Numbered from the stretch's first letter, positions 2-38,700 are shown. The stretch: 64,000 nucleotides of DNA from Candidatus Omnitrophota bacterium (GCA_049642065.1 JBAROK010000007.1:2134-66133), one strand, 5' to 3'. Notes: generated by a model from the letters alone, not told the origin. Program-made: numbers and translations.

Positions 2-3000
2 TCTGATTTCGATCAAAAGGTTAGGATAATTGGCGAGTGGCTGTTTCCCGCGATTAACGATGAGTTGAATAAGCTCGGCCTTGAAAATATTGAAGACGTT
101 GATGAGTTCGGTAATCAGGTAGTGAAGGAACGGCTGTTCAAGGAAAGAAAAGAGGCAGAGACCTCGGGGAGATTTAAAAGAGGCGAAGATGGGGAACTAG
201 CATTAGATGATACTTATGAGGAAGTAAAGGTTGTGAAGGAATTTTCCCAGATGCTTATGGATCTGGAAGCTGGACGGGTTACAGGCATTCAGCCGGGATA
301 CTTGATGTATATAGCCGAACTTGTCGAATATCTGGAAGGCAGCAGGCAGTTAAATTTTTATAGAAAAGGTACAATCGGTAATTTTAGGGTAGATGAATGC
401 ACGGTGCCTCTTAAGGGTGAGAACCATACTTTTTATGTGCTGAGGTTCCGAGATACCGGCAAGGTACTTTTTGGTGTAGCAGTTAAGGGTGATAAATGGA
501 TAAAGGTTAATGGTAGGGATGCAAACGTTGAGAATAAGCTCGGGAAGATCTATGAGCTCTTAAAGAGCGAGGGGTACACGCTGGTTGCTGAGTTAGCTGA
601 CTTCAAAATGGCTACAAGAGAAGAGCTCAAGAGCAGATTGGCGGAACTTACCGCACTGGCAAAAGACGAAGAAGTAGAGAAACGTTTTCCGATATACCAG
701 CTTGGCACAAAAGGAATCGAAGGTGGTTTTATACAGACACAGATCGCTTCACCGGGCAAAGTATTCGGAATAATCTCTATAGATACTCCTGGTAAGAAAG
801 ATTTACAGCAGGAATGGTCCTCAAAAATATATGTTCCGGGTAAAGGGTATATTGCTCCGGACGATACATCCAAGGCAAGCAAGGCGGCCGGTGCTATAGC
901 GGATTCAGGTGCTACTAATAATCATGCTAATATCACCTTGAGGCGTGAAGGTTTTGCCAGTGTGATAGGTATGGGGTCCCATCAGATGGTAGTGGAAGGG
1001 AACGTTATAAGGATAAAGTGTAACGTGCCGTCTACGGAAGATGTGATAAGGGGAAATGAAACTCGTACGATAAGACATTATAAGGAAGGGGAGGTCGTAC
1101 TAAGAGATGGCGACCTTGTCATGATAGATGCATCAGAAGATAGTTCTGACGGAGTCGTTGTTGCAGTGGGCAAAACGCAGTCAGAAGAGAAAGATTTTAG
1201 CGCCGAAGCGAAAGAACTTTTTGGTGTTCTCAGGGATATTGAACTGGGTGGTCCTCTCCAGGAGGGATCACAATACAGCCAGTTATATAAGCGAACTGTT
1301 GGGAGGATAACTGGTGCAGAGACGAAAATACGGGATATGCGTCTTCTGAACATGCGCAGGATCCTAAAAGACGCTTCAAGCGATAAAACTGTCAATCTCG
1401 CTAAGATGGTTGCCGAGATATTGATAGATACGAGCATGATAACCGATAGCGATAAAGCCAGAAGGACTCTGGAGACGCTCCTAAGAAGTCTTGACGATAA
1501 TGTGCGCGGTGAAGTGGAAGAGTTTATTAAGCTCCTTTTCGGTAAGAAGGTTTACCAGATAGAAAAAGAAATACATGCTGTGCTGGGGGAAGTAGGGATA
1601 AGTAATGTAAAGAAGAATCCGTCGTCCACGTTGCTGTACAGTAACACAGAACATATCCTGCTTGAGATCCGCGATCTTAACGATAAGATGGCTTTGGTAG
1701 CGGAGATGATACCGGGCGTGGATTACGATCCAGGAAAAGGTCTATTTGCTGAAGAAGCGGATATCATCAGGAAAAGGTTCAACGAGGCGCTTGAATATCT
1801 TCGCAGCAAGAAGCTGGATGAGCTGAGTGCGTATCATAGCGAGTACAGGATAGCGGAGATCGAACGTATCCTGAAAGCAGCTGATATTAATGAAGAAAAG
1901 TGGATAGAACTGAGCGATGAACTCGAGACGCTGAGGAGGACTTCAAGGGGATGGATGTTAGACAAGATCGAACGAGACCTAAGTAAGGTCAGAAGGGATA
2001 TTATAAAAGCGGAATGTCTCGGATGCGATCTTTCAAGCCCAGAGATGCTTACGCTTCAGATGGAAGTCAATCGTATGGTAGCTGTTGCTAACATCAAGAC
2101 GATGAGACAAAAAGGGCCGGGACGTTATGTTATAGACTTAAGTGAGCTGGGCAGCATATACAGGCAGGTTGCCGGGAACAAAGCTGCTGAGGTAGCTGAA
2201 GTGATGAAGATATCCGAATCTGCAGACAGCTATACTTACAGGACCGATTCCGGATTGACAGAGATAAGAAATATATTAAAAGACGGATTTGATCAAGTGC
2301 CTAGCGGGTTTGTCATAAGTTCTCTTGCTGTTTACAGCGTGATACAAGAAAACAGTGCTATTCGTCCAGATATAGAGGCGCTGATTTCCGGCAATGTGGC
2401 TCCTGAAGAAAAAATAGAGAAGTTAACGGAACTGTTGCTTGCCAAAGGAAAAATACCGGAATTTTTGAAAGAGATGATAGCGGAGAAATATAGTTCCATG
2501 GCAGGTGAAAGCAAGGAGCCTATAGTCATAACACGATCTACATCCCAGATGGAGGACCTTCTGGATGAAACAAGGCCCGGCGTTAGGAAAGCCGGTAAGT
2601 ATCTGTCCTTTGAATGCGTTAAGGGCATCGACCAGATAAAGAAGAACATATTTAAACATCTGGCACATTTCTGGGTAACAGAAGGAGATGTAAACGACCT
2701 TCATCCTATCCTAGTGCAGGAGATGCTTTTTGACCTGCATTCGTCTTTCGTGGCTAATTCAGTGGATTCTGCGGAAAAGAACTGGAACGTTGCGAACATA
2801 GATGCGGTGCTCGGATTGGGCAGGGGTGTCGTAGAAGGTGGGGAAGGTATAGCCATACATACCTTTAAGGCGGATAATGAGGGAAGGATAACGGGGCGTA
2901 TCGTGCCTCCCCATAACAGGATGTGGGCTCCCGCACCTTCCGGAATCGGTATCAAGCTGGTAGATGTGCCTGCGGAAATGAAAGCAGCTAGAGCTCTAAC

Positions 3001-6000
3001 CGAAGAACAGGTAGCGAAAATAGCAAAACTTGCACGTGCGTTCCAGAAATATTACAGGTTTCCTGTCAATATAGAGGGTGGTGTAACAAAAGACGGGAAG
3101 ATAGTTATATTCCAGGTGAGGCCTGATTCAACGCTGAAATCAAATTCATACAGCATGTCGGGGACCGGTATACACAGCCCGCCTGTAGAAAAAATTATAG
3201 CGCTCAGAAAACAGTATCTTGCCGCTGAAAATCCATCCGCGGAAGAACTGGGCAAAGTAGACCCCGCCGCTATATCGGAGCTGATAGATACCAACATAAA
3301 CGAATTATACCAAGCAAGAAAGTCCGAATCCGAAGTAAGAGACCTTGAATATAAACTGGTCGAGAGATTAGTTCAGTTTAAGGGTTACCATTATGACAGG
3401 GCCCGTGAAGTGGTAATGGACCTTAGGTTATACCACAGGCGCTCCGATGTGGTGGACAAACTGGACGAACTCTTCTTTGAGGAGCTAAAACAGATATTAA
3501 GAGAACGGCTGTTCGAAGAAGGGGAATTCAACAGGGACAGGGAAAAAATATCTTATTTTGTTGAGAATTTTCATAACTTGCAGGAGATCAGAGAGGGTAA
3601 AGATATACCGAATGGTAATCTTTTCAAGAGTAAACCGGAATACAGAGATGCGGTTATAACCTGGGAAGAGAGGATAGACCGGTACGCTTACAGGTATTTC
3701 ACCAACAAGGTAGCCTGGGATACAGCGAAAACTAACGCCGAAAAAGTCATATTTAACAATGTTCTGGTGAGGCATTTATCTGAAAAAGCGAAGGGTGAGA
3801 TGTATGCTTTTATAAGGTATCTCGTGCCCCGGCTTTACGAGAACATACCTCCTTTGAAACGGCTCAGACGCCCGACAATAGTTCTTATAGGCGGTACTAC
3901 TGCCAGCGGTAAATCCACTTCCGCCAGGTCTGTCGCTAAGAACCTGGGTATGCCGTATTATTTCTCTGCCGATCCTATAAGGGAAGTGCAAAGAAAGCTC
4001 ATACCGAAAGATACTAACCTGTCACCGGCTGACAAGCGGTCGAGTTTTCAGGAAGATCCGGCAGAAAAAGGGTTTATAGAACACGGGTCAAGCGTAATAA
4101 GGTCACTTAATGAATGTGCACGTTGGGCTGTCAATGAGAACAGGAGCATGGTAATAGAAGGTGTTCACCTTATCCCTGGACTTATAGATCCTAAACTTTT
4201 TGAAGAGGCGAACGTGGTGCAGATCATCGTGACAGTCGCCGACGAAAAAGGCCATGCCGCCAGGATAGAAAAAAGAGGTAAGGAAGAATCGGGAAGAGGT
4301 GGCGCTGGAAGATATCTTAAGGATTTCGATAAGATACGCAAAGCGAACGATCTTTTTGATGAACAGGCAAGGTCTCACGGCGTTGTAAGGGTGGATAATA
4401 GCAGCGATTTCACCCGTACTATCAGTGAAGTTCTTTTTTACGCGGCTGGTCCTTACAAAGATAAGGCGAAACAGGGACCGGATGAACGTTTACGGGCGAT
4501 GCTTGACAATAAAGTAACTAGGGAAAAAGTAAGGACTTCTTCCTCTTTAGGTAAGTATGTAAAGTCAGTGTACACGCTGGGAGAAAGCGACAAATTATAT
4601 ATCGATGCCAGTGAAATAGAGCCGGGAGTAATCGATAAGTCTGAAATAGAGGCTTTAAGGAATGCCATAGTCCAGACCACCTCAAGCGGTGCTCTGGTTA
4701 TAAGGGATTTTGACCGCCTTGTTGCCGAAGGCCGCTCTCTATTAGATTTTGCTGCCAGTATAGGTTTTGATGATGTGATCATCGGACAGGAAGCACTGTT
4801 CGCGCGTACCGCTAAAGAAGTAGAACCGATACTACAAGGGTTAACTGCGTATGCCGCTGAGCTTAACGTAAAAGTGCTTATAGAGAACCTGCCTACTACC
4901 GGTAATGCCGAGATATCCATTGGACTTAAGGACGCATACGGAAAAGGCGTACAGGATATTGATATGGAAGCGATAGTGCTTGCGGACGAAAATGGCGAAC
5001 CGGCCGGTATGATAGAAGACGGTGACGCCGTGTTCTTTGCCTGTAAACGCGGTGAGAGGGAGATACAGATCACGCTTCCCTTTGTCGCGGAAAAGATCGG
5101 CCAGAAATTCACGGACCTTGTAGTGAAAACATACGAGAAGATCAAGTTCGGGATAATGACACTTTATCACGACATGTTCGATCCGCTGCCAGTTGCGTTC
5201 AGGCCGATGAGACAAAAAGATCCGTTAGTAGACGTTTTAAGTGGCGCGGGCAAGAGATTCCTTCTTTCTGCCGAATCCGAGAAGATCAACCATATCACAT
5301 ATTTCTTCAAGGGGCAGTCAAGGGAGCCGATGGAAGGCGAAGAAATCTTCAGCGTAGATTCGCCTCCTAAAGATGAGCACCTTGACAGGCCGGAACTTTC
5401 TTTGCCCGCGCTTACTAAAGGTATTACTGAAAGGATGGAGACGGGCAATTTTGATTTCGTCGGTATAAACCTGGCTAACTGTGACGTTATCGGGCATTAT
5501 TACGATCCTACGGATGTAGAGAAGAACAAAGAAATAATCCAGATTAGACGCGAGGCGGCCGAAGCGGTTGATGAACACCTGGGGATACTGTTAGAGGCCG
5601 CAAAGAAACAGGGGTATTCTGTTATTGTTACCGCTGATCACGGCGTGGGAGAGGTAGCGGTAAAGAAAGGCAAGGGTGTCGGTAAACATACTACCAACCT
5701 GGTCCCGTTTATCGTGGTTGACCCGGACACTACAAAGGCGAGTGTTATTTCCATAGCTGAGACCGGAAGGCTTGGCGACGTGGCGCCGACGGTACTGGAT
5801 CTAATGAAGATGCAGAAACCGGAAGAAATGACGGGACAGAGCCTGCTCGTGGATTATCCTGAAAACGCTGATCCCAAAAAAGTTATGCTTATAGTGATGG
5901 ATGGTTGGGGTATAGGCGCAGAATCTGAAGATAACCCGATCCATATAGCTAATACACCTGTTCTGGACAGTCTTTACAAGGAATATTTGAACACTCGGAT

Positions 6001-9000
6001 AAAAGCGTCCCAGGAAGAGGTAGGGCTCCTTGCCGGTGACAGCGGTAATTCCGAAGCCGGTCATCTTAATCTCGGAGCGGGAAGAATAGTTTTAGGGGAC
6101 GATATAAGGATTGTCAATGCTGTTAAGGGTGAACCTATAGAAGGCGATACTACACTTGATGAGAACGCCGCGATACTTGAGACGATAGCTCATGCGAATG
6201 AACACGGTTCCAATCTTCACTTGATAGGACTCTTATCTGACGCAAGTTCGCATGGAAGGGTCGCCCATGTGCTGGAACTGCTCAAGCTTGCCAAGAGAAA
6301 AAGAGAAGAGTTCCGTGAGGAAGGTAAAGGTGACGGATTTAAAGAAGTCTTTATGCATATGATAACTGACGGCAGGAGCACCGAATCCGGTACTGCGCCG
6401 GTACTACTGCTTGATATGCAGAAACAGATGTCAAGGATAGGTCTTGGCAAGATCGTTGACTGTGTAGGCAGGAACCTTGCGCTTGACAGGGCATACAACT
6501 GGGGCAAAACGAAAAAAGCTTACCGGTTATTTGCCATGGGTGAAGGTAAACAGGTAGGTCCCGTGGGGATAGCCGAACAGCTTTTAAGAGATATACCGGA
6601 ACTTGGTGTCGCGTACAACTGGGATAACCATACCCTTAGCGGTGACCGTCCTGGTTTTGTGGGCAGTCTTGACGTAAGAGAACGGGTGGGCGCGATATTC
6701 GTCACTGATACGACCGTCAAAGACGAAGAGAAAAACATATTTGGAGCATTCGATGGCCATGGGGACATACCTTTCTTTGTCTATAGGATGCCGAAAGCAG
6801 CAAAAACACCCGAAAAGAAAAAGGAAGAAGAAACTATCTTAAGCGCTGAGACAGCTCAGGCCATTATTGATAAGTGCCAGGATAAACTTAAAGCTACGCG
6901 TAAGTCCCTTGAGGCTATACATGCGTATCAGTACCAGAGGGTAGTCAAGCTAGCGGAGGATCCAACCCTTCATTTTGATAAAGCACGAAAGAACCTTAAC
7001 GGCCTTTTTGCTGAGATCGAAAAAATATTAAACAGCCCTGACCTTGAGAGAAGGCAGAGGAAAGAAGCGATAAGGGCTCTTATGGAAGGGTTTATCGGGC
7101 TCTTCGGCTGGCAGACGATACAGTCAGTAAGGGAACATCTGGAAAGAGATGACCTGCCCGTAGACATACTTGACGGTGTCAACACTTATGAAGACCTCAA
7201 AAACGCTCTCAACGAGAACGCGAAAGTTAATATACCCGATGAGAAGATAGTCAATTACAGGTCAAAGATTACCCGAAGAAATATAGAGATGCGGGAGCTT
7301 GCTATTGAATATATCGAACTTGTTGAAGAGCAGAAGCGGCTTTATAACGAAGAACGTGAAGCGATACGGGAAGCTTACGTTGAAATTACCGGTGAAGAGC
7401 TAGTCGATGAGGAGAAGCTGCATGTCGCGGCAAGAAAAGCTTATCCGGAATATGTGCTGGACGTTCCGCATCTAAAGGATACGGATAAACCTACTTTTGT
7501 TAATGTTGCCGGAGTGATGGGGGTTAATAGCGCTGATGTGGCACATGCTATAGCCGAAAGGTCAGGTATCCCCTCTAGAATGCATTCTGGGATGCTGCGA
7601 GGAGTAATATCCGGGATATGGCCGGAAGATTTTATCAGCGCGACTGACAACTTTAATATCGGCAAAGATATAAAAGATGCGTATGTCAAAGCTTTTAATA
7701 AAGAAGCAAAGGCTGCATTAGAGGTTATCCTGACCGGTGAAGGGAATATCTCCAGAGCTGAAGCTGAAGCTATCCTGAAAAAGTTTGCCGAAAACTGGAA
7801 ACAGGCGATCCTCGAGCCGATTTACAGTGACTGGGTCAGGCTAACGAACCAGGGTACCAAACAAGCAATAAAGAGACTGCTAAAAGAAAAGTCCAGTCAG
7901 GTTTTTGTGGGAGTCTTCCCGGGTCTTCTTGATCCTGCGCATCATGAGGACGCGAATATCGTAAGCATTATAGTTAAAGTGGAAGATATCAATGAGCATT
8001 GGGACGGGTTCTTAGTTTCAGCAAAAGCCAGAGGAGTGGATAATCCATCAGACTGTATGGCGGAATTTTTCGCTAACAGAATACTCCAGGATCACCTGAC
8101 AGATTTGGGCAGGGACCTGATCCTGCCTGAAGTCCGTGAAACAGCTGTAGTTGACAGTTCTAATATGGAAAGTGCCGTCAGGAATGCTGTTAACAGGGTA
8201 ATCGATCCCATTGCAGATAGGTACGTTGAAGTGCCGAACGAAATAAAAGAAAAAGCAGAACTAGAAGAGAAAGTAGTTTTAGCCAAATATACCGAAGCAT
8301 GGGTAAAGTATTTAAAGATCCCTCAGATATCAATAGCATGGCTCTTAGGTTGGGCCGTTTTGAGATCGGTTTCTCCGGAAGCCGCGATAGCGTTCAGTAT
8401 AGCTTCGATATTTGGCGTTATATTCATGGTAATCGCCTCAAAAGACAGGTTGTTCCTGGAAAAGGCCGTGGCTAGCGCGGTTCTTGCTGTAGGGGTTTCT
8501 ACTTTCGTGCCAGGATGCTCAGAAGCGAAAAAAGACCCCAGGCCGGAACCAAGGCCGAATGCTGCGGCTGCTTCAGATGGAGACAAACCGGGCAATAAAG
8601 AATCGCAGGAGAAACCCTTCGAGATTAAGCCCGGCGAGAACATACCCGCCAGGGACAGAAATAAAGAAAAGAAGCCCAGTGAAGATACAATGAAAGCCGT
8701 AAGCGGTCTTATAGATAATGTGCTGGCACATACCGATAGGGACAGGACCGAAGATTACAGGAAGAACGCGAAGTTCCTGATGATCATGACGATGATGGTA
8801 GAAAGCGATCAGTTTGCCAGTTCCGTCCAGTACGGGGGAGGCCCCGCCAGGGGGCTGGCACAGTTCGAACCTGCGACGGCAAAATATGTGCGTGATCAGG
8901 TCAATAAACTAACGGAGAATAAAAGGTTCAAAAAAGCTCTCCAGGTCACTTTCGGCGAGAAATGGGAAGAGAAGATATTTGGCCTATCATCGGAAGAGAT

Positions 9001-12000: not shown

Positions 12001-15000
12001 ATATACTTGTGTGAACGACCGGAACAAAGACAAAATTGAATCGCTTGCCAGGTTTATGCGGGAGTATATTGGTTCTTTTAATACGGTAGAGTGGGAGATA
12101 AGCAGGGAGAATATGGTCAGAGGCAATGATGCTATAAGCGAAGATGATTATGTCCAGTTGACCAGTAAGCTGAGAGAAGCGCATCCTGGATTACCGATTG
12201 ATTATGCCGTTTTAACAAGAGAAGAAACAAATCTCCATGTGTATAACGACGGTAAATTAGCTATAAAAGATGAGGGTGCCTTAAAGAATGTGGGAGACCT
12301 TTTCATCCCGGATACGCTTAAAGACAAGAGTAACCAGTCTGTTTTTCGAAGAATAACAGAGAATATCAGTGTGCAGTCTACTTACATACCGCGAAAAGAC
12401 GAAGTAACGGCCCTTCCTTCCACGTATGTGGCCAGTACCCGTGAAGAGTTTACGAAAGCGATAAATAAAATGCAGGCAAAGACACTTTTGCCTCATATAG
12501 AATGGGAAACAGAAGTTGCAGGCGCTATCGGTTATGTAATAGGAATGACAGACAAAGAGATAGAAATATTGGCTCTCGCCATACAGGCGCATCATCTCGG
12601 ACATATTCCCCGGGCAAAGAACAAAAAAGAATTCGAAAAAATGCTTGCCGTTCTTAAAAAAGCATACCCGCCGGACCATGACCTTAAAGGAGGCGAAGTA
12701 TGGCACATTAGAGACGCCATAAATAGATTGTTTGCTGCTGAGGGTGGCGAAGGTAAGACCGAACCGCAAAGATTCGATATATTTCGCGCAGAAATGGCTA
12801 GCCTTCTGGGTAAGAAGGACCTTACTAGTGACCAGAAAGCGATCGCCAGGTCGATGCTAGATTCAAAAGCGTATATGCAGGAAGTGCTGAAAGAGAACAA
12901 GATGAAGCTTCCAGCAGATTTAAGGATATTAACAGAATATTACGGCAGGCACGATAGGTATACTGAAGCTCGCTCCCGGGAAGAAGATCGGTTCAGGATG
13001 GAGCTATCCATAGACCCTGATAGAATGGCCAAACTGATAGCTATTTCCAGGATCGCTTCGACATTCGTTAACAGGATAGACGAATCGGTGCGTAGTCTGA
13101 GGGGAGAAGCGGGCGATTCTATGCCGGAAATAATAAGTTTTATAGTAGATAATCTCAAGAGAGATGGTGAAACAGGCGATAATATTCTTGAAGCTCTTGA
13201 TGGGCTTATTGCCCTTATCAGGGAACAGGATAGTACCATACTTTCAATAGCGAACCGGGCCAGAGGCGGGGATGAGGGACTGATGATTGCCAAATCAGAT
13301 AGGTCGTTCTTGAGGTTCCTTCAGAAAGGTGTTGGAAAGGTCAGAAACAAAAGACAGAATATGCGGATCATAGAATCGTTCAGACGCTATGAAAAAGGTA
13401 TTGTCGCTGAAGATTATTACCGATGGGCTATTGCAGCAGGGATCGTGAGTGGTTTTCTTGGTCTGATAAGCTTGTTTACGGGTTCGATGTGGGTAATAGG
13501 GGTTACCTGCTACAGCTTATGGGCTCTGGGGCGTTATTATTCCATAGGCAGGGATATTGAAAGAGGGACAGGTGCGGTACAACTGGATAAAGAACTCGCC
13601 AAAAAGACTCCTGTGGTCAAAATACGCCCGGATGGCTTACTTGAAAGGGATGAGAAGATATGCAAAAGTCTTCCTCCGTTTACCAACAGGATGCTTAAAA
13701 TACACGAAATTTTCGGGATGAGAATATCGGCGATGATATTCACACTTCCGATAGTAGGACGTATAATCACGAACACGTATGTCGAGATGAAACGGCTCAA
13801 CATGTGGATGGATTTCACGATACGAAAGAACCGGCCGCTTGTCACGTACGATGCTTTTAACCCAAGCCGCGTGAGGGGAAGAAGAGATCAAATGGACTTT
13901 GAAAATGGTTCGTGGAAGTGGAGAAGAGGTGACGGTCTTGCGCTTATAGCTGATATCGGGGATGACCTGAGGAGAAGGATAGAAGAAGTGCAGGAAGCGC
14001 TGAAAAAAGTAGTACCCGATGCCGAAAAACTTTTCTTAATGGAACCGGAAAGGTTGCACATAACCGTGGCAACGCTGACAAAAAACACTACCAGCGTTGA
14101 TACAAATCCAGAAAGAAGGGCAAAAAGGGAGTCCTTGATCAGGGAAACTAAGAGTCGCGTGTCTGCCTTAGGTAGTGGCGGGATAGAAGTCAGTTTTAGT
14201 CTTAATGATCTGACTATTTGGGATAATGGAGATATAGCTATACTGGGTAGGATGGAGAACCGGGGTTTAGACGAGATAAGAACCAGTTTAGACGAGTTTA
14301 ATTTAAGTGTTCATAAAAAAGATATAGTACACGTTACTGTTGGCAGGATATTTGATGAGGATATATCTGTCGATACGTTCAATGAAATAAGGGATGTATT
14401 AGAAAAGTTCCGTAACGGTAAAACCGAGGGTGATAAGAAGAAATTTTTTACGATGACTCCGGAGCTCTTTATCTGGGATCAGGCAGGGAAGACGGACGAC
14501 AAAAAGTACATACACATCCCGCGCACTAAAAAATCGGGCAGAGACAGTAAAAGACTGAGTAAGCTGGGCGAACCGAAAAGGCGCGATCTGAGTGGGGTCG
14601 CATCGAAAGAAACGAATCCTCTCATTGAGCGGCTTATTAAGGAAGGCAAGATAGTAGAGCTTTTTGAACAGAATGGCCAGCTTGACGCTTACAGGGTTAA
14701 ATGGGTTGAAGGATACCAGCCCGGCAGGGTGCAGGAAGAGGTGTTCGGTGAGGAAGTAGACGTGGATGAGATGTTCACAAGGTCGCAACAGGATAACATG
14801 CTCAGGTGGATGCGTCTGCACGGATTACCTGATAGTCGCGGCGGAGTGCATTTTAGAATAGCCCTCGATAACGCGGCTTTAGGCTGGACCGGAGACGAGG
14901 AACATTCCAACATAAGCCATGCAGGTTACCGCGACGGATGCATTTATATAGGTGAGCGTCTGCTCGCTTCCATATTTACCGACCCAGACGATCCATTAAG

Positions 15001-18000: not shown

Positions 18001-21000
18001 GGCAGAATATCTACGAAAACGTTTCGGTGTGCGCAAATTCGTCATAGGTGGCGGTAAAGGAACGCGTTTTTCTCCTGAAGGTATCATGGTGAAACAGCTG
18101 TTCAAGCCCGATAATTATAACACTAATATCAAACAGTCCAGGATATCCTCAGCCTTTGGTATGCTTGAAGATGTTATAGTCGTTGACGCTATAACAATAT
18201 TCAACCTTTTGCACCAGGATAAGGAACTTTTGGCTGAACATAAAACCACGATGTTCTTTAACGTCAGGGAGAATCTTGTCAACCTGATGGACTCCGGGTA
18301 CATCAATAGAGAGCAGTGTAAGGAATTAGTAGGGAAAATAAAGAACATAATCGACAATGAATTGGTCTATACGCACCGTTCAGACCATCTGCGAGATCTT
18401 GGTTCAGCGATGGAATCTGCGGCAAGAGCAGTTGAGGATGTTCTCGGGAAAAAGAATGAAAGGGCCCAGTTCGTTACCGATAAGATATCATATGCGGTGT
18501 TCAAGGTTATTATGGCTATTGGGGAGGAACTTATCGATGAGAATAAGAAGGACGAACTTTTCGGTAAGAATTGTATTGTAATACTAGATTCTGGAGACGG
18601 CCACGGAAGTGCCTATGTGGAAGCTCTGAGAGCCCTTAATTACAGTGGCAAGCTTGACCAAGCAAGGTATTCCGTTATAGTTCATGCCGATTCACCCGGA
18701 TGGGGTCTCGATGAATATCCAAATTACGTATTCATATCATATCTGAAGACGGTAAATACCGTTTCACCGCAAGTACAGGATATGCCCAAAGTGACAATAG
18801 CGGCTAAGAACCCTAGAGACAAACGTGCGCAAGGACGTGCCCGCATAGATACCATTACGGTTGAAAATGTTGGTGAGGTTCCCGTGGGTGTAAGGGAGTG
18901 GAACGAACTGAGCTACCAAGAGAAAAAAGAATCCAGAGAAAAAGCCAAGGCCCAGGATCCGACATGGTTCACCAACGCGAACATACTAATATGCGACACG
19001 ATGTGGGCCTACGATAAGAAAGATGTTTTAGAGAGCGAATACAGGCATGAATTGGGTCGTATGGGCAAGATGAAACGCCGTCCCGCGGAATACTGGAGCA
19101 GCGATTACCTTAATATTGCTGCCAGGGAATATCTGCAACTTATCAAGAAAGATCCTGAAACTGCACCTTTAACGCGGCTTGTATTTATCGGTCAAGACGC
19201 TCCTAATGCCAACAAGACACTTGGCCGGGCTCTTGAATACAGGGATGCCTTACAGAAAATGATCCTGAGAAAGATAAGAAGAATGGGCGTAGAAGTTGAT
19301 AAAGATACAACGGTGGCTATATCCAGTACTGATGTAGGCCCGAATTTTGATCTCGATAAGATAATAGAGGATATCTTTGGGGATAACCTTGAAGGCCCCG
19401 CTAAATTCGGTAACACGAAGCTGAGGGGCGCTATACATCTTGACGCTACGGTAGTTGTGCAAAAAGGAGCTATCCTGGACGGCAGGAAAAAAGATGTTTC
19501 TCTTACGGGAAATTGTGTAGTCGAGAGAGGTGTAGAGCTGCATGGTGTGGTCAGGGCAGATTATCTTTTTGACAAGAACGAGCTTCTGCCGACCAATAAG
19601 TTCTATATAACAGGCAGACAGTTCCGGGACAGCACTACCGAAGCGACAGTAGTAGATAACGTTGATTTCAGGGAACTTGGCCTCATAGTGGACGATCGTA
19701 CAAGGATATGGATAGCGAAAAAGGATAAAGGCGAGAGCGATCTTAGCGTACTGAAGAAAATATTCGGAAGCGATCACCCTGATAGCGGCAGGGTCACGGA
19801 CCAGATATTTGTGTACGGGGATGTTGTGCTGGACAGCACGGTCAGGGTGGAGAACGGTACGATGCTTGACGGTAGGGTTGATGAAGTGATCCTTGTCGGT
19901 GACACGCACGTGCATAAGGGAGTTAACCTCAAGAGCGTCAAAGCTAATGATACAACTTTTGCCGGCTGGAGTGATCTTGACATTTATCATTACAGGCAGC
20001 CTACTCATGACGGAAATGTAGGTATACGCAACTCGGAATTTGACAACTCTTACATAGAGATCCGCGCGGAGGTCATCAACTCGATGATACGGAATTCATA
20101 CGTAGCCAACGGAGCTATGGTAGAGGAATCCGATGTGGCTGATGAAGTTGTCGTGAACGGAGAAGAAGTACGGGACAGGCGCTTAAACAGGAAGGATGAT
20201 GCGTTATCGGTATCGGTAACCGCAGAAGAAGACGGCAAGGTCAATTACATGCCCGGAGCTTTCCGGCTAGAGGAACTTCCCAATGAAGATATAGAAGATA
20301 TACTCGGTTATCAGATCAAGTCCGCCAGAAAGCTTTATATGAAATTCATCTCGGATCCGATCCTTCTCGAACGCATGGTCCAGGAAACCGAACAGTTCAT
20401 ACGCAGCAGCGTGACACCTCGCTTTACGATACAGCAGATCCGGCAGTATCTCATAGCTAAAATAAGGGATAATTGCGACAAGGAACCGGATGTCAGCAAG
20501 TTCCGTCCGCTTGTGGAAGACCTTAGGGCACACGCTAAGCTATGGATGGCCAATGCGATTGAAATTGACATTAATGATGAAGCAGCATCAAAAGCCTTTT
20601 TCAAGGAACTGAGCATACTGGCTACACGCGCTAATTTCATAGATTTTTCAATAGATCCTAAAATGTTCGATATCGACCAATTGGTGGAGACGGATGAAGC
20701 GCAGAGGAAGAAGTTTACCGATCTTGTCGATGAGTTTGCCGATAGTGATCTGGCGATAGACGGTTACAGCGAGTTTGAAAAGATGGTGTTCAGCCCGGAA
20801 AAGGGCGTTTTCCTTTTCTTTACGGATAATATCGGTGAAACTGAGATCGATGCGGTTATGTGGGAATTCCTCGCGCGTATGGGGCATACCGTAGTTATAG
20901 CCGCAAAAGACGGTTTCTCGTATGCTGATATAGACGTTAAAGGTGTCGAAGAAACGGTGAATGCACATCCTTCGCTTTGTAAGCACAGGGATGAAGGCAG

Positions 21001-24000
21001 GATAAAGGTTATAGCAAGCGGGTCTATGTCAGAAGGAGTGTTTCCCCACAAGTTCAGCGACGAAGTCCAGGATGTGCTGCTTTATGGCACTAAACTTAAG
21101 GGCATAATCGCTAAAGGACAGGCGAACCTGTTCACGCTTTCGGCCCGGAACAAGATCAGCGTGCCGGTAGTGGTAATGTGCCTGTCTAAATCCAGGACGT
21201 CGAAAAAGATAACGGGTATAGATATAAAAGAGAATGAAGACGGCAGTAAACTGTTTCCTCCGATGATAGCGGTAGTGCCTGCGGGAGAGAATATCGCTAA
21301 CTGCATCGGAAGAGGCGTATTCGGAGGAAAATTAACGCGTTTTGGCAAAAAAGATGAGGGTGACTCTAGCACAGGCGATACACACGCTTTTACCGCACGG
21401 GACGGCATGAGATGGGCAAAACGGTTTTTAACTGGAGCAGCTTTATTTACTGTTGTCTCAGCAATAGCGGCTATAGGCTTTGTTCTGCATCTGGACCACT
21501 TACCGTGGGGTTTTGTAATAATCTTTGCCGGGGTAGACGTGGTGCTTGCAATGATCTCTTTGGAGTATTATCTTCTTGGGAAGGAAGCTTATAAGGCAAC
21601 GGTTAAATATATTTTTGAAGGCAGGGATTCAAGGGATATGCTTGAGGAAGATGCCGTTTCACAAAAACAGGCTATGGATACAAAGATTGCGGAACATCAG
21701 GCGAACAACATCATAAAATATCATCCGGCTTTCAGGTATCTTTCAGAACATGCTCAGGAAGCCGTAAAGATACACGAGTCGTTTGCGAGCCACAAGTTGG
21801 GCATGTTAGCCATGGTACCTGTGCTTGGTAGGATACTGTGGTTGAAACTGAGAGATGTGCATGACAGGGATATGCTCATACACTCCGATTATTCTAATAT
21901 AGAACAGGTGTTAAGGACGCAGCTTGAAAGAAACGTGGATACTGAGTTCCTGAAAGAAGCTTACCGAAAAGGAGCGAAGGAAGAGCCGATAGAAGGGTCT
22001 AGGATCCTTAAGGTTACTGACCGTTCGGGAGATCCTGATATTAAACGTCAGCAGGGATTCCTGCGGTATGAGCGTACAGTCAACAAAAGATGTACGTTCT
22101 GTAATATCCCGGACCTCTCAACAGAAGTCCACAGGTCAAAGACAGCAGAATGGGCTTTTTCAGTCGAACCGTCTCCGGTATTCAGTTCGCAGATGATAGC
22201 GATAAATTCAAGGCACATAGACCAGGGTACCATGGGGCCGGAAGTTTATTATGACATGTTCCAGATGCTTAAGAATCTTAAGGGATGGCAGATGAGCTGG
22301 CCCGGCAGGCTTAGCACCAGCCATCCGGATCATTTTCATGTCCATATGTTCGAAAGAGACAAGAACTCTCCGGTCGAAGAATACGATATGCAGCCGATAT
22401 GCAGGGACAGAAAAGGCGAAGGTGTGGTTCATTTGATAAAAGACTATCCCGACAGGGACCATGCTATAGCTGCTTTTGCCATAGCAGGGAGCATCAGGAA
22501 CGCTGCTGTATTCGCTAAAAGATGCGCTGACCTGGAAGCAATAATAAAGAGCGCCGGATATGAGGTAGACAAATTCATCACTAAGGGCGCGAATGGCGCG
22601 ATAAAGGTGCTTTTCTATCCGAGGACCGCTTCTTACATGAAAATAGGGCCCTCAGGCCGCGGGAGGTTAACCGGGCCTATTGAATTGAGCGGCATATGGG
22701 TGACTCAGGATGAGAAAGAAAGAGATGCGTTCAGCCTCCGGGATGTGCATGATATTCTTTCAAAGACCACGCTCAGGCTTTACAGCGACAGTTTCCAGGC
22801 ACTTGAGGATCAGATAAAGAGACATTTTTATGAAGCTGAGGGGATAGGCCTTTTACCGTCCAGTATGGATCTCATGGTAACGAATAAATGCAATTTGAAC
22901 TGCCCCGTTTGCTGGGGATCTTACATGCCTAAGCACAGGATATTTGCTCCGGATAACGCTGATATTGAGTGGGTGGATTTCAAGGAGAAAAAGATAAAGT
23001 ATCGTGGCACCGGACAGGAACGGGTGGAGAAGTTCGAGGATAACCAGAAAACGGCTCATGAGCTGGAAGTGATCAGGAGCAAGCTCAGCATGTACTATTG
23101 CACAGAACCGGAATCACCCGAGATAGAGCATATAAGGTTCTTTAGCCTTGCCGGTGACGGTAAGAAGGTAGAGAAGGTCACCGTCAGGTTCACTGAGGGC
23201 AAGACCGACAGTATGGCGCTCGGCAGCGACGAATATAATGATGCAGTTCTAATGGTTCAGAAAAAGATGATCGATGTCATGCATAAGAATGGTATGCGCC
23301 GCATGGTGTTCACCGGAGGAGAGCCTTTACTCGAAGATAATCTCGCGGAACTTTTAAAGTACGCTAAAGAAAAAAATATAACGACATGGCTTTTTACCAA
23401 CGGCCTTCTGATGGACGAAGAAAAAGCGGACCAGATCATGCCGTATGTGGATATGATATCGCTGTCTCTTGACGGTCATGATGACGCGACGAACTCAAGG
23501 AACAGAAAACCAGGTCATTTTGTTGCGGTGCTAAAAGTCCTTAGGATATTAAGCCGCAAATATCCCGAGAAAGAAGTGCAGATACTTACCGTTGTTACGG
23601 AGAGGAACAAAGCATATATCCGTAAGATAGGGTTCCTGCTCAGGCAGGTTACCAAGGGCCTTAAAAGTTTCCAGTGGAAACTTAATTATTACAAGCGCAT
23701 AGGCCGGTCACAGCACGAGAGAGACATAAAGAACGACGTATTTCTAATGGAGTATGGTAAATTCGTGAGCCTTGCAAAGTCCGTGCAGAAGGAGTTCACG
23801 GATATCAAGGTACGATACAGCCCGCCCGACCACGATAAGGCGTATTTATTTGTATTTCCTGACGGTACATTGTCAACGACGGTAGGCCCGGAATATCTGG
23901 AACTCGGCAACATACTTGATGCGGATACGCTCAGGGAGGAGGATAACCTTAAGATATTCAAGACCATAACCGACAATATCCGCAAACGCGCTATCTATAT

Positions 24001-32700: not shown

Positions 32701-35700
32701 TGGAGATCCGTGCGTGGTTAGCAGATTGGCGCAAGCAGATGGAAGAAGTAGAGAGCGAAGATATTCCGGATGTTAGCAAGCTCGATGATATCATTCGCAT
32801 CAGGATGAAAGAGCTGAATGCCAGGAAGAAAGAACTTGAAAATAAAATAACAACAATGGAAAAAGAGTCAGGTAAGACTCGCAGGACTTCGACCGAGCAG
32901 CTTGAGAACATACTTAACAAGGATTTTGAGTTCACTGTTAAAGGAGACGGCGAGGTAGACGGCATAAGGCAGATAATAGCCAAGAAAGCCGCTTACAAGG
33001 TTCTCGAGCATATGGATAACTGGCATTCCCGTGTTATGAAATCCGAGGAGTTCGAGAATAAGAGCGTTAAGGCCATAGAAGAGTTCATACAAGAACAGCG
33101 TGAAGAGATGGGCCGCATAATGAAAAGGTACGGTATAACCGAGGAGACAGTGCCCGGTGAAGTAGACGAGCTTAACCGTATGTTCAATTTCTGTGCCATG
33201 CAGGCTACGGTAGAGGCGTCCAAGAGACGGAAACCGCAACTTACAGAGACGCAGCAGCTTATCGCTCTGGAAGCCCAGAGAGAACATGAAACTCAGGAGA
33301 AACATAAAAAGACCCATGTCAGCATCAAGCCTGCTAAACCGAGCCAGAGCAGCGAAACAGAAAAACTTATCGAGAGAATAAATAACGGTGAAAGCATGGA
33401 AGATATCGCTGATGACGCTATCTCTGTGATAGAGGCAATCATAGCGGATAATCAGGAAGAAGAACCCGCACGGGCAAAAGACGAATTCAGTGACCTGGTA
33501 AATCACTCTTATGAGGACGGTCATGCCGTACGTATAGTCGGGGCGATAGAGATAGCTTTCAGTAAGATACAGGATTCAGATGAAACCGAAGAAGCAGCCC
33601 GTAAAACCATGGTGGATGGCATACGTCAGATGCAGAACGTTTTTGATTCTGCTCCGGAACTTACAGGGAACGAAGAAGCCAAAAGACAAGCTTATCATAT
33701 ACAGGATCTGGGTGAATGTGTTCTTGACACGGCGTTCAGGTCAAGGTTCAGGAAGTTCAGTACGCTTTATGACAGCCAGAGAAGGGCAGTAAAAGACGTT
33801 ATCATCAAAGAAACCAGATCGAGAGACGGTATGACAAGAAGCAAGATCGGTCAGATGCCGACCTCTTCCGGTAAAACGATAGCACTTTATACAGGTGCTT
33901 ATATCATGGCCATTAAAGCTCTTAGTAATAGCGGCAAAGAGGAATCCGAAGGTGTGCTTATCACTTCTACGGAAGAGTCCAAGGCAAAGGAAGATGCGAC
34001 GGAAGCTGCCAGAGCCCTGGCGAGGCTTGGTATTCAGGTAGGGTTTATAGGCTCCAGCCCGGAAGGTCAGCCAGTAGGATACCTGTTTGACGTTACTACG
34101 AACCGTCTTGAAAAAGTTGAGAACGATACCAGGGTGTATTCTGAAGCTGTTGTGATATACAGTACGCTGGATAAGTTTGTTCATCGTTCGCAGAACGAAG
34201 AAATGGCGCAGGATCCAAGAGAAAGACAGTTCATATCTCGTAAATGGCGCCTGAGAATGGACGAAGCGGACGTGCCGCTTATATATGACCTTTCGAACCC
34301 GTTCATCGTTTCCAGTACACAGGGAGACCCCAGGTTGCTCCGCAAGATAGACCAGGTTGTCCGTGAACACATAATAGTCAAGGAACTGCGTAAAGAACTG
34401 GGTATAGACGTTTTTGACTCGATGGAGCTGCGAGATAAGCTGGCCAGAAGGGATTTCTTGAAACCTGCTGGTGATCTTACTTCTGAAGAAAGGGCGCAGA
34501 TAGAGCAGAGGATATACGGTGATACGGAGCTCTATAAGACTGACCGGAAAAAGAGAACTGTAACTTTTAACCAGGATGGGTTATATGTCCTGGCCCAACA
34601 GCTTGAGACGCTCGGTGTACCGAGAGATGCTATAAATGCGAACAGGGCGATATACGGCAGACTGGCCGAGACCGCTCTTGCCTCACATCTTTTTGACGAA
34701 AAATACAAACATTATACAGAAATGGTAGTTCGCGGCAAACAGGAAATAGTCCTTCTGGATGAAGGTACGGGCCGGGTTAAGTTCGGCCGGTTGCCATATG
34801 ATCTCCAGGCCGCTATTGAAGCTAAAGAAGACCTTCCGGTAATGCCGGAGGAAGATTCCGATCTTATATACCAGATAGACGGTATCGTTCGTGACAAGGT
34901 ACTGAACCATCCGGGGCTTTACGAGAAGAAAGAGAACGAAAGATTCGTGATGCTGAATTCCCGTGGGCTTCAAGTTATGGAAGAGGCTTTGGTGGAAGCG
35001 GGCAGAAGAGCAGATGACGTGAAACGCGATAAGGCCAAATTCGAAGAACTGGCCGAAAGGGCTCTTGCGGCATCGCTTTTCTATGTGAAAGATAAAGATT
35101 ACAGCGTTATGAAAGTTAACGAAAAAGATGAGATCATCCTCCTTGATGAAGGTACCGGTAAGCCGATGTATGGCAGGAGATTGTCGTATGGTCTTCACGC
35201 CGCGATAGAAGCCAAGGAAGGGCTTGAAGTTAAACCTGAGGGAGTCGTTGTTGCATGGGGAACCCTGAGCGGTTTTCTGGAACAGTCTTTCATCCAGTCT
35301 TTCGGTGGTGTCACGGCGACAAGCGACAGGGATGCTATGATGCAGCTTCATAAACTGGAGACTGTTGATATATTAAGAGGTTTGCGCGACGAAATGTCAA
35401 TAAGGGAATTCAATAGAGCTTATGATGACCTTGAGCCGGAAGAGAGAGCGAAAATAAATACGGTGGTTTTTGAGAGCCGCAGGGAAGAAAAAGATCCGCA
35501 GATATACGCGACCAGGACAAAGAAGGTCAAAGCAGTCTTCCGGGTTGTGATGAGAGAACATAAGAATGAGAATAAAAGGCCCATTATGATAAAGGTGGCT
35601 AATGACGTCCAAGCCCAGGAAATGGCTGCCCTTATAAGGAACGGCCTGAGTGAGAATGCTGACATAGAGCTTCTCAACAAAATGGCACAAAGGCTGTTCA

Positions 35701-38700
35701 ATAAACCATACGCTGAGCTTGACGCGGAACAGCAGAATAAGGTCAACAACATAGAGATTATGACAGCCGCAACGTACGCGGATATAGAACGTATCAAGAA
35801 AAGAGCCGGCCGGGAAGGCCAGATAACCATAGTGACGAACCTCGGTGGAAGGGGTATAGATATAAAACTTACAGCTGAATCTGCAAGGATAGGCGGACTT
35901 TTCGGTATATCCACGTATTTCGATGAACTTTCCGCTTCGGATATACAGTTCAGAGGTCGTGTCGGAAGAAACGGCCGTCCGGGTATGTGGATGGGGTTCT
36001 GGTCCCTTGAGGACAGGGCGTTCCAGAAATATGCAGAAGCTCACCCGGAAGGCGTGCAGATACTTAAAGATATGCTTGCGGCAGTCGAAAAAGATGAGAG
36101 ACAGCCAAGTAAGCATATAGGTGCCGAGCCCATAGTTAAACAGATTGTCGAAGAGATAAGGGAAAGTATCAAGAAAAGGCATATATATGGCAACCGTCAG
36201 CATCAGGAACTTTCTGAATATATAGAAAGACGTAAAGACGCGTTTTTTGGTAAAAGGGATAAGCTTGTATTCAAACTGAGGGATCTCATTGACAAAATAC
36301 AAGAAGAGAAGAAGAAATTAGAGGAAGTTGACCGCAGCATACGCGAGCATGGGGAAGAGTTCATGGACCTTATCGGTGAGTCTGCTCCGGCAATGGACGC
36401 GTCTGCTTCACAGATAATTGAAAGAGTTATGATCGCGTGCGAAATGAACGATACTGTCGGTAAGAACATAACGGACCTGGCAGCGAAAGGCGATGAGATC
36501 GCCAGTAACCTGGTAGATATCATAGGTAGCAGGGAATATATCATTGAGACGATAAGGGAGATGGAAGCCGACAGGAAAAAGCTCATGCTTCCTATAGTGA
36601 AAATGGACGTTTCCTGGAAGAGATTTCTCGCTAAAGCGGGTAATATACAGAAAGACCTTGACCGCTTTATCAGGCATTACGGATGGCGCCAGGCGCTTCT
36701 TCAGATAGATCCGGTAGTTAACCGTGAGGCTATGGTGAAGGAAGCTTACGAATCAGAGTTTGGTAAACCGCATATAGGGTTAAGTATTTTCAAGATGGCT
36801 GTCAGGGCAGTTGTTGTTTTTGGAACACTGTTCGGTGTATCCATTCTTGCGCCTTCGGTACTTGTTGGATTATTTAATGTTATCGGCTTGCCATTTACAG
36901 CGGGATATATATTCCTGCTGGTTGCGGCGACGCTGGTAGCGGTAAAACCGAAGATCGGCCTGTCTGTTTTAACGATGACCGGTTTCTGGGCCATTTTCAA
37001 GAGTCTTTTCAAGGTAATGGACCTACATTATCTTACGGTTAAACTGACATCAGACGCGTTTTCCCTGATGACAAATGACGCTTATCTGGTTTTTCTTACG
37101 GGGCTTGTAAGTGTGGTGTTCCTCGGGGTCACTCTGATGATGCAGAGGAAGTTCTTGAAACAGTTCCAGGAAGTAGACAAGAGCCTGAGGAATTTTGCAC
37201 GTGCTTTTCATGATATTGAAGGTGTAGGGTTTACCCGGGCCATGGTCAAGTTTGTGTTCCAGCAGGTGCTTAGCCTGGTAAATTATATAGCGCCAATGCT
37301 GGCAGGGCTTTGCCTGATCGTAACGGCTGCATTTCCTCCTTTTGTTAGCGGCGCCCTGGTTGTGGCACCTGTTACTGTCGGGATAGGGGCAGCTATAGGC
37401 GCGTTGGGACTTTTGACAACAGCAATAACCATATTAATCAACTGGAGACAGATCAAGGAAAGAGGCGTACACCGTCCCAGTATTCCAGAAAGATATGTTT
37501 CGGTAATAATTGACAGCGTTATCGGATTGACCACTGGTTTCTTTGTTTACACAATGGCTACACAGGTCAATCCGCTTTATATCATATTCGGTACCGCTGC
37601 GGCTGTGCTGCTTTTAATGATTACAAAAAGGAGTGTTTCCAAGGCTTTTGGAACGCACGCGATCCATAAAAAGACTGTTATGAGGGGAATGGCTCTTGCA
37701 CTTCCTCTGACAATAGCTTTGGTGCTTGTGTCACGGGCTATCGGTATGACGACTACCCCGCTTACGGCTGCGGTAGCGCTGGCGTCAGTTCCGTTTTTCA
37801 TGAGTTTAACAGGATATTTGGTTGCACAGTGGTATTCAGCTAAGAGGCTTTCCCAGATAGAGTCGAAAATAACTGGCATTTCCAGGACTAGAAGTTTTGT
37901 GGCTACTGTTTTTGAGCAGAACGTTCTTAATGTCAGACAGTGGGCTCCCGGACTTGGAGCAGCGACTACACTGGTTCTTGGAGTATGGGGGCTCTTAGGC
38001 AAGAGCAGCCTTCTCAATGGTGTGCCGATAACACTGGGAGTGCTCACCGGTCTTTATATCATGTTGCGCATAGCCAGGGAAGTATACAAGAGGCGGTATG
38101 CTAAAAGGGATGTTGCCGAAAAGACCATAAAAGATCTTCGCCTTGCCAGGAACGTTATATCAAAGGATGAGTTCTCTCGGCTCAGAGAAGCGGCTACAGC
38201 GTATAAAGCCGAACGTTTCAATACGGATAATCCGTATCTTCTGGCTGTCACAAAATTGGACGCAGCTATTGAAGGCAATTCAGTGCTTAAAAGGATATTG
38301 AAAGAGGTTACCGCGCACGGTCCTCCCAGCACCGGAAAATGGGATAAAGCCGAACTTAAAAGCTCGATTGAAAAAGTCATATTTTTTGAAAATGCCGTAG
38401 ACTTAAACGGTGATGTGGTCCAGATGGACGAGCAGGGAGAACTTGCTGTTACAGCGTATATATCTCTTTTTGAAGAGTTCAACCTGGTCAGGACATTCCT
38501 TGATAGAGCATATACATCCGCACGTGATCCAGAGAACTGGATGAAAGCCCTCAGATATTCGTTCCTATTTTCTATAGGGTTCCCGCTTCTTGTCGGTGGC
38601 GCTAAAGCCGCATATGTTAAACGTGAACAGGCGGTTGCCAAGCACGAAAGAGAAGTCGCGCAGCAGAAATTACTGCAAGAGATGAGGATGGCTAAGCTGG

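Follow-up and report, generated by a model that had tools for sequence, protein, structure and literature searches.

A conserved and apparently active phosphotransfer block in a giant protein of Candidatus Omnitrophota

A 64,000-nucleotide (nt) stretch of DNA from a Candidatus Omnitrophota bacterium (GCA_049642065.1 JBAROK010000007.1:2134-66133; here called the window) carries two giant open reading frames (ORFs) on its plus strand: ORF1, which ends at nt 26272, and ORF2 (nt 26706 to 63335; 12,209 amino acids [aa]). We found that nt 2 to 8224 of ORF1 encode what is apparently one conserved, active, ATP-driven phosphotransfer block. From its N to its C terminus, this block combines the tail of a domain here termed X, a phospho-His swivel domain, a helical spacer, an ATP-grasp domain, a helical lead-in (helB) with a kinase of the 2-phosphoglycerate kinase (2PGK) family, a circularly permuted cofactor-independent phosphoglycerate mutase (iPGM), and a degenerate second 2PGK-like unit. 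The block is probably one previously undescribed pathway unit acting on phosphoglycerates. That Omnitrophota giants are multienzyme proteins is already known; what is new here is the conserved phosphotransfer unit itself, which is apparently undescribed. A first-pass annotation, made from the sequence alone, had proposed a phosphoenolpyruvate (PEP)-utilizer His domain, a PPDK_N ATP-grasp domain, a 2PGK-like kinase, and an iPGM within nt 880 to 6800. All four lie at about those positions, and the three large domains score far above chance in hidden Markov model (HMM) searches with Pfam and NCBIfam across aa 1 to 2312, but the block is wider than proposed by the domain X tail and the second 2PGK-like unit. 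The 5' part of ORF1 is cut off by the window edge: the frame is open from nt 2, giving at least 8,756 aa, of which 8,735 follow a TTG at nt 65, the point from which aa are numbered here.

Domains of the ORF1 block

The N-terminal half of the block resembles a dikinase. The window starts inside domain X, the C-terminal tail of which occupies nt 2 to 259 (plus strand, as for all features of the block). A region of the closest long homologue, the contig L001 (L001p 1886-2145), spans window aa 1 to ~65 and matches aa 397 to 621 of P0039 and aa 2580 to 2880 of P0002, two further homologues described below; domain X lies ahead of the His domain in L001 and P0039 and, in P0002, ahead of the iPGM. An AlphaFold2 model of domain X from a three-sequence alignment reached a pLDDT of only 31.8. 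The segment that follows (aa 66 to 225; nt 260 to 739) has no family match, aligns with aa ~620 to 780 of P0039, and is 66% identical to L001. Next comes the phospho-His swivel domain (nt 740 to 1264), in which aa 263 to 319 match the PEP-utilizers family (PF00391) with E = 6e-4 and 19.7 bits, a score that on its own falls below the Pfam threshold of 23.1. A profile of four sequences of this domain, in turn, recognizes the central phospho-His domain of PEP synthase (8A8E; E = 1.8e-5) and that of pyruvate phosphate dikinase (PPDK; 2FM4; E = 1.4e-4), and the predicted catalytic residue His287 (nt 923 to 925), invariant across four divergent homologues, aligns with the catalytic His of PEP synthase structures. 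The His domain of the first-pass annotation is supported by the profile and structure alignments, though not by its Pfam score. A helical spacer without any family match (aa 401 to 690; nt 1265 to 2134), variable among homologues and conserved only with L001 (73% identity), leads to the PPDK_N ATP-grasp nucleotide-binding domain (nt 2135 to 3154; PF01326 at aa 744 to 1026, E = 4e-25, 89.1 bits against a cutoff of 27). Its alignment to PEP synthase 2OLS retains RS(T/S)xxxED (R824), E1004, and Q1017-x-R-P.

The kinase part begins with helB (nt 3155 to 3829), which resembles the stretches that lead into each of the two kinase copies in P0039 and P0002 and precedes every 2PGK-like domain in all of the homologues. 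The kinase itself (aa 1256 to 1460; nt 3830 to 4444) finds NF003259 as the best of all NCBIfam kinase models (E = 2.5e-34), retains an intact Walker A motif (GGTTASGKST, with Lys1283 at nt 3911 to 3913), and, at 90% identity, is the segment most conserved with L001; sequence searches recovered no solved structure homologous to it. A 147-aa linker without a family match (nt 4445 to 4885; 63% identical to L001, absent from P0002 and P0039) separates it from the mutase, beyond which lies the second helB and 2PGK-like unit (aa ~2265 to 2720; nt 6857 to 8224). This unit was recognized by its self-match to the first in both phmmer and BLASTP (E = 4e-9) and has lost the Walker A motif, reading AGVMGVNSAD at aa 2482.

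The mutase (nt 4886 to 6559), which the first-pass annotation had called near-complete, is in fact complete and circularly permuted: aa 1619 to 1928 (nt 4919 to 5848) correspond to residues 220 to 510 of 1EJJ, and aa 1938 to 2162 (nt 5876 to 6550) correspond to residues 4 to 211. Summed over the two stretches, the TIGR01307 score is 355.6 bits against a cutoff of 330.65, and the match to 1EJJ in the Protein Data Bank (PDB) has E = 8e-81. Of 16 catalytic, metal, and substrate residues compared (1EJJ numbering), 15 are kept (D12, S62, H66, H123, R153, R185, R191, R261, R264, K336, D403, H407, D444, H445, and H462). The sole altered residue is D154, replaced by Ser (D154S), so that the nucleophile, the metal ligands, and the substrate-binding residues are otherwise intact. 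The first-pass annotation had placed the nucleophile in the wrong motif: TADHG carries the metal ligands D1858 and H1859 (equivalent to D444 and H445), and the nucleophilic serine is S1996 (nt 6050 to 6052; equivalent to S62) in GNSEAGH. An AlphaFold2 model of the excised domain, built from 51 homologues, has a pLDDT of 90.9 and a pTM of 0.89. Foldseek searches with this model returned iPGMs as the only significant PDB matches, each over about half of the chain (~290 columns), which is expected of a permutation since a sequential aligner cannot span both halves.

A search of 1.84 billion representatives, complemented by a second homologue search, recovered many stand-alone proteins of ~520 aa that share the permuted order throughout, at 40 to 46% identity, from Firmicutes, Treponema, Acetothermia, and other metagenome-assembled genomes. 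The databases annotate them as ordinary iPGMs, and a widespread permuted clade is thus exposed behind ordinary glycolytic iPGM labels. In a rough neighbor-joining tree, the window iPGM falls within this clade, all members of which have D154S; the permuted domain of P0042 groups instead with the canonical enzymes, as do the iPGM domains of P0002 and P0065, two Omnitrophota proteins in which the order is canonical. By this placement, large proteins captured an iPGM at least three times. P0042 (5,027 aa, from a Logan assembly) has its permuted iPGM at aa 3850 to 4375, keeps D154, and would represent an independent permutation; its N terminus resembles by eye that of ORF2 (IQD.H...EG...TGGYH motifs). 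Another protein, P0153 (727 aa; L008:1336-3519, adjoining a triosephosphate isomerase gene), has a full canonical iPGM (model positions 1 to 503) with its N-terminal half repeated behind it and looks like the partial tandem duplication expected en route to a circular permutation. Literature searches on permuted iPGMs and on Asp154 returned nothing relevant.

The stand-alone members of the permuted clade lie outside glycolytic operons. In Oscillospiraceae (L003:3002-10630), the gene lies between four HAD hydrolase genes and a pair encoding a PfkB kinase and an H+-pyrophosphatase, with a LacI regulator upstream. On a second Firmicutes contig (L007:6469-12024), it is found with HAD genes (2 to 4 across the two operons, both of which have LacI nearby), an archaeal-type mutase, and a PRK-family kinase. 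These operons suggest a non-glycolytic phospho-metabolite pathway. The possibility that the mutase of the block is a housekeeping glycolytic enzyme captured as is was considered and rejected, because the permuted clade sits in non-glycolytic contexts.

Recurrence, selection, and gene neighborhoods

The block is under strong purifying selection. On the 30.6-kb contig L001 (CAZMEZ010000021.1), an ORF that runs throughout the 23.5 kb examined is colinear without gaps with ORF1 aa 1 to 2165 at 71% identity and encodes ~2,080 aa of HEAT repeats upstream of the matching region. Synonymous sites between the two sequences are saturated (pS of 0.67 to 0.80, against a pN of 0.06 to 0.24). Four domain segments allowed dS to be estimated, and in none of them does dN/dS exceed 0.06. 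Conservation peaks in the enzymes, with 90% identity in the kinase and 83 to 84% in the mutase halves versus 63 to 73% in neighboring segments. The L001 entry is labeled as an uncultured Planctomycetia bacterium, and an NCBI fragment of 971 aa (P0151), which matches the window at 99% identity over the 561-aa query, is labeled as Candidatus Omnitrophota; one of these labels is probably wrong.

The block also recurs in other Omnitrophota giants and, in the thermophilic sulfate reducer Ca. Desulfofervidus auxilii, as a gene pair. The order of His domain, spacer, PPDK_N, and two tandem helB and 2PGK-like units is common to P0002 (3,482 aa; a fragment from Omnitrophota that ends with a canonical iPGM), P0039, which is identical to L013 (2,401 aa; a member of its cluster is named Ca. 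Desulfofervidus auxilii), and L012 (2,412 aa), and PPDK_N with helB-2PGK units is also present in L014. In the window, the linker and the permuted iPGM form an insert that parts the two kinase units; L012 and L013 encode the permuted iPGM in a gene of its own, which overlaps the 3' end of the large gene. In L012, this pair is followed downstream (L012:9636-13185) by genes for a tandem universal stress protein and a P-type cation ATPase, neighbors that hint at a stress or osmolyte context.

For kinase and mutase alike, the gene neighborhoods of the nearest stand-alone relatives point to cyclic 2,3-diphosphoglycerate (cDPG), a link that the first-pass annotation had drawn from methanogens and that the gene contexts corroborate. 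The kinase relatives (35 to 40% identity, ~300 aa, mostly from Coriobacteriia and other Actinomycetota, and named 2PGK) are encoded directly downstream of CpgS, the cDPG synthetase, in all five distinct loci examined (L009/L010, L011, L015/L016, and L017; a sixth locus duplicates one of these). The pairs, at L009:4650-6984, L011:4641-6918, L015:8369-10696, and L017:1514-3822, come from Coriobacteriia, other Actinomycetota, and unassigned metagenome contigs, and the adjacency supports a true 2PGK function for these stand-alone enzymes. Similarly, the gene for the nearest stand-alone permuted iPGM (P0152, from Acetothermia; L006:6670-9629 with its neighbor) is translationally coupled, through a 4-nt overlap, to a CpgS gene, the product of which matches the cDPG synthetase 8ORK (E = 6e-136). 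The pattern of fusions and neighborhoods ties a dikinase, a 2PGK-type kinase, a permuted iPGM, and, in relatives, CpgS into one probable pathway.

Proposed pathway and competing explanations

A Kyte-Doolittle scan found no candidate transmembrane (TM) helix in ORF1 aa 1 to 2768; the first after the block is at aa 2769 to 2787 (nt 8369 to 8425; mean hydropathy, 1.79), and L001 has a TM hairpin ~660 aa upstream of the point matching the window start. With three ATP-using domains, the block is expected to be cytoplasmic within a membrane-anchored giant protein, which fits the published interpretation of nearly half of the Omnitrophota long proteins as having membrane-anchored cytoplasmic domains (10.1101/2023.11.21.568195; 10.64898/2026.06.07.730766). 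The earlier description of the protein as envelope-associated is imprecise for a block that is ATP dependent and lies within at least 2,768 aa without a predicted TM helix.

We tentatively favor, with slightly less than even confidence, a functional cytoplasm-facing supermodule that probably runs a phosphoglycerate line from 3-phosphoglycerate (3-PG) through 2-phosphoglycerate (2-PG) to 2,3-bisphosphoglycerate (2,3-BPG), with an added dikinase step. The permuted iPGM would equilibrate 3-PG and 2-PG and so supply 2-PG, which the P-loop kinase would phosphorylate with ATP to 2,3-BPG. The ATP-grasp domain would charge His287 (ATP -> AMP + Pi + His~P), and the swivel domain would hand the phosphate on to an acceptor, for which domain X is the probable binding site. 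The constant fusion of the dikinase and the 2PGK units suggests that they work in the same pathway, and the acceptor would most likely be a further intermediate of that line. The pathway would end in 2,3-BPG or a compound derived from it, used as such or passed to a cDPG synthetase encoded elsewhere. With this block, one giant Omnitrophota protein, of a largely unannotated class, gains a defined, conserved, and testable enzymatic unit.

Several observations weigh against this reading. The kinase scores 119 bits, far from the 2PGK equivalog cutoff of 343 in NF003259, mevalonate-3-phosphate 5-kinase also belongs to the same family, and L014 has a HAD hydrolase in place of the iPGM. The fixed D154S substitution and the non-glycolytic contexts of the permuted clade suggest that the substrate may not be plain 2-PG or 3-PG. 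Domain X, the putative acceptor site, has no Pfam match and no PDB match by sequence profile. Moreover, no CpgS domain was found in ORF1, ORF2, or L001 with phmmer and a three-sequence HMM (the Pfam set used being one without PF27272), nor in the supermodule loci L012 to L014. With no CpgS in the window or in these loci, the product may be 2,3-BPG itself or may feed a CpgS elsewhere. A bolder version, which we consider unlikely, is that the dikinase, the 2PGK-type kinases, and the permuted D154S mutase form an unrecognized bacterial route to a polyphosphorylated glycerate, in which the dikinase would replace the cDPG synthetase by phosphorylating 2,3-BPG for cyclization to cDPG or a related pyrophosphate solute; if true, cDPG-type chemistry would reach bacteria via a non-orthologous enzyme wired into membrane-anchored Omnitrophota giants.

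Of the other explanations, the one to which we give most weight, while still thinking it rather unlikely, is that the domains have been neofunctionalized for a non-glycolytic substrate, with glucan-water-dikinase-like phosphorylation of a polymer or protein and 2PGK- and iPGM-like domains whose substrate would be a phospho-sugar acid or the phosphorylated end of a polymer; the unit would then belong to the carbohydrate-processing machinery that has been reported for the giants. The His domain precedes the ATP-grasp domain, the reverse of the order in PEP synthase and PPDK and apparently that of plant glucan-water dikinase. D154S is fixed in the permuted clade, members of which in Firmicutes occur with HAD, PfkB, and PRK genes under LacI regulators; the kinase lies below the equivalog cutoff; and sugar-metabolism modules are common in Omnitrophota giants (10.1101/2023.11.21.568195; 10.64898/2026.06.07.730766). 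Yet, every residue through which 1EJJ holds the carboxylate and phosphate of phosphoglycerate is kept, no carbohydrate-binding module was detected in the block, and the kinase and the mutase each have nearest stand-alone relatives that are linked to CpgS.

The first-pass annotation had instead suggested an on-board phosphoryl-donor or energy-coupling module. Such a module would regenerate ATP or PEP for other parts of the giant proteins, such as the SecA-like ATPase of ORF2. The domains do come from families that interconvert PEP, 2-PG, 3-PG, and 2,3-BPG, and a SecA-like motor is present in the neighboring ORF. This idea nevertheless seems improbable: domain scans of ORF1 and ORF2 recovered no enolase, pyruvate kinase, phosphoglycerate kinase, or PEP/pyruvate-binding domain (the TIM barrel PF02896 has no match anywhere in either), and hence no enzyme that makes ATP or PEP; the kinase and dikinase both consume ATP; and D. 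auxilii has the block outside any giant to be powered, as a stand-alone 2,401-aa protein (HDD45278.1) with an adjacent gene. Quite improbable, too, is a prey-directed effector that, once brought into a host or prey cell or exposed to it, would divert or harvest phosphoglycerate-type metabolites (2,3-BPG or the cDPG pools of methanogens) there. Omnitrophota have been described as predatory or parasitic, with one giant protein rising on attachment to Methanosaeta (10.1101/2023.11.21.568195; 10.64898/2026.06.07.730766), and 2PGK/cDPG chemistry is known from methanogens (PMC10690619), but we saw no evidence that this segment has a signal or is delivered, the block is present in the nonpredatory D. 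auxilii, and its ATP dependence favors a cytoplasmic site. That the domains are inactive relics of captured genes kept as structural filler is highly improbable. The loss of Walker A from the second 2PGK-like unit indicates that domain decay does happen in ORF1; however, the catalytic residues are otherwise intact, and no part of the region is better conserved than the enzyme domains, under the selection documented above, on which grounds we rejected this reading. Against all of these, a phosphoglycerate line with a dikinase step remains the interpretation that we prefer.

The giant-protein context and comparison with known systems

Downstream of the block, ORF1 encodes a weak LigT/2H-phosphoesterase-like match (nt 13961 to 14413), an ARMT1-like damage-control phosphatase (nt 20570 to 21193), DUF4922 (nt 22082 to 22348), a radical SAM domain (nt 23261 to 23623), and an HD domain (nt 24110 to 24334); several of these also belong to phosphate-ester chemistry. 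ORF2 has dense clusters of TM segments and, of SecA, the preprotein-binding and P-loop domains only (nt 34857 to 35879 and nt 36774 to 38066; aa 2718 to 3058 and aa 3357 to 3787), with no scaffold or wing, followed by ~10 candidate TM helices. GC skew is positive throughout the window (nt 1 to 64000; 0.12 to 0.29) and AT skew is mostly so, the sense strand of both giant ORFs being purine rich.

These properties place the window proteins among the "Archaeovorin"-type giants of Omnitrophota, which have been published as multienzyme proteins (West-Roberts et al. 2023 bioRxiv 10.1101/2023.11.21.568195; 2026 preprint 10.64898/2026.06.07.730766). PPDK_N, HEAT_2, and Radical_SAM are within the top 20 domains of these giants, and a SecA-like domain without scaffold or wing, together with a TM cluster, is a reported hallmark of their genes (10.1101/2023.11.21.568195; 10.64898/2026.06.07.730766). 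The window has all of the defining traits, namely, giant ORFs (>8,000 and 12,209 aa), many candidate TM segments, SecA-like preprotein-binding and P-loop domains in ORF2 lacking scaffold and wing, and an Omnitrophota origin, and it shares HEAT repeats, PPDK_N, radical SAM, and HD with the published proteins. To call the fusion of such enzymes in a giant protein unexpected, as the first-pass annotation did, was therefore an overstatement. What sets the window apart from the published giants, and is not described in those papers, is the conserved X-His-ATP-grasp-2PGK block with a permuted iPGM, found outside Omnitrophota as well: phosphoglycerate mutase and 2PGK have 0 occurrences in both giant-protein papers (10.1101/2023.11.21.568195; 10.64898/2026.06.07.730766), and literature searches on 2PGK in Omnitrophota giant proteins returned nothing relevant.

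Among individual enzymes, the dikinase part is closest to PEP synthase, PPDK, and rifampicin phosphotransferase, with which it shares an ATP-grasp domain carrying conserved motifs for nucleotide and Mg; its predicted swivel domain, with the putative catalytic His287, also resembles theirs. In contrast to PEP synthase and PPDK, the order is reversed, the His domain being N-terminal to the ATP-grasp domain and separated from it by a helical spacer of ~330 aa; neither the TIM barrel nor the rifampicin-binding domain is present, and domain X stands ahead of the His domain. The mutase shares with canonical GpmI (1EJJ and 1O98) the two-domain fold, at 34 to 35% identity across the aligned structure, but differs in being permuted, with new termini near canonical residues 212 to 220, and in D154S. 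The kinase, unlike the bacterial stand-alone 2PGKs, lacks an ATP-cone. With the archaeal cDPG pathway (Methanothermus fervidus; PMC10690619), the block has in common a 2PGK-family kinase domain; it differs in lacking a CpgS domain and in that the kinase scores under the equivalog cutoff and is fused to a dikinase and a mutase. According to the report on the structure of cDPG synthetase, cDPG is confined to hyperthermophilic methanogens (PMC10690619); the CpgS-2PGK operons of Coriobacteriia and other Actinomycetota, with the Acetothermia pair, suggest that cDPG-type extremolyte chemistry extends beyond methanogenic archaea.

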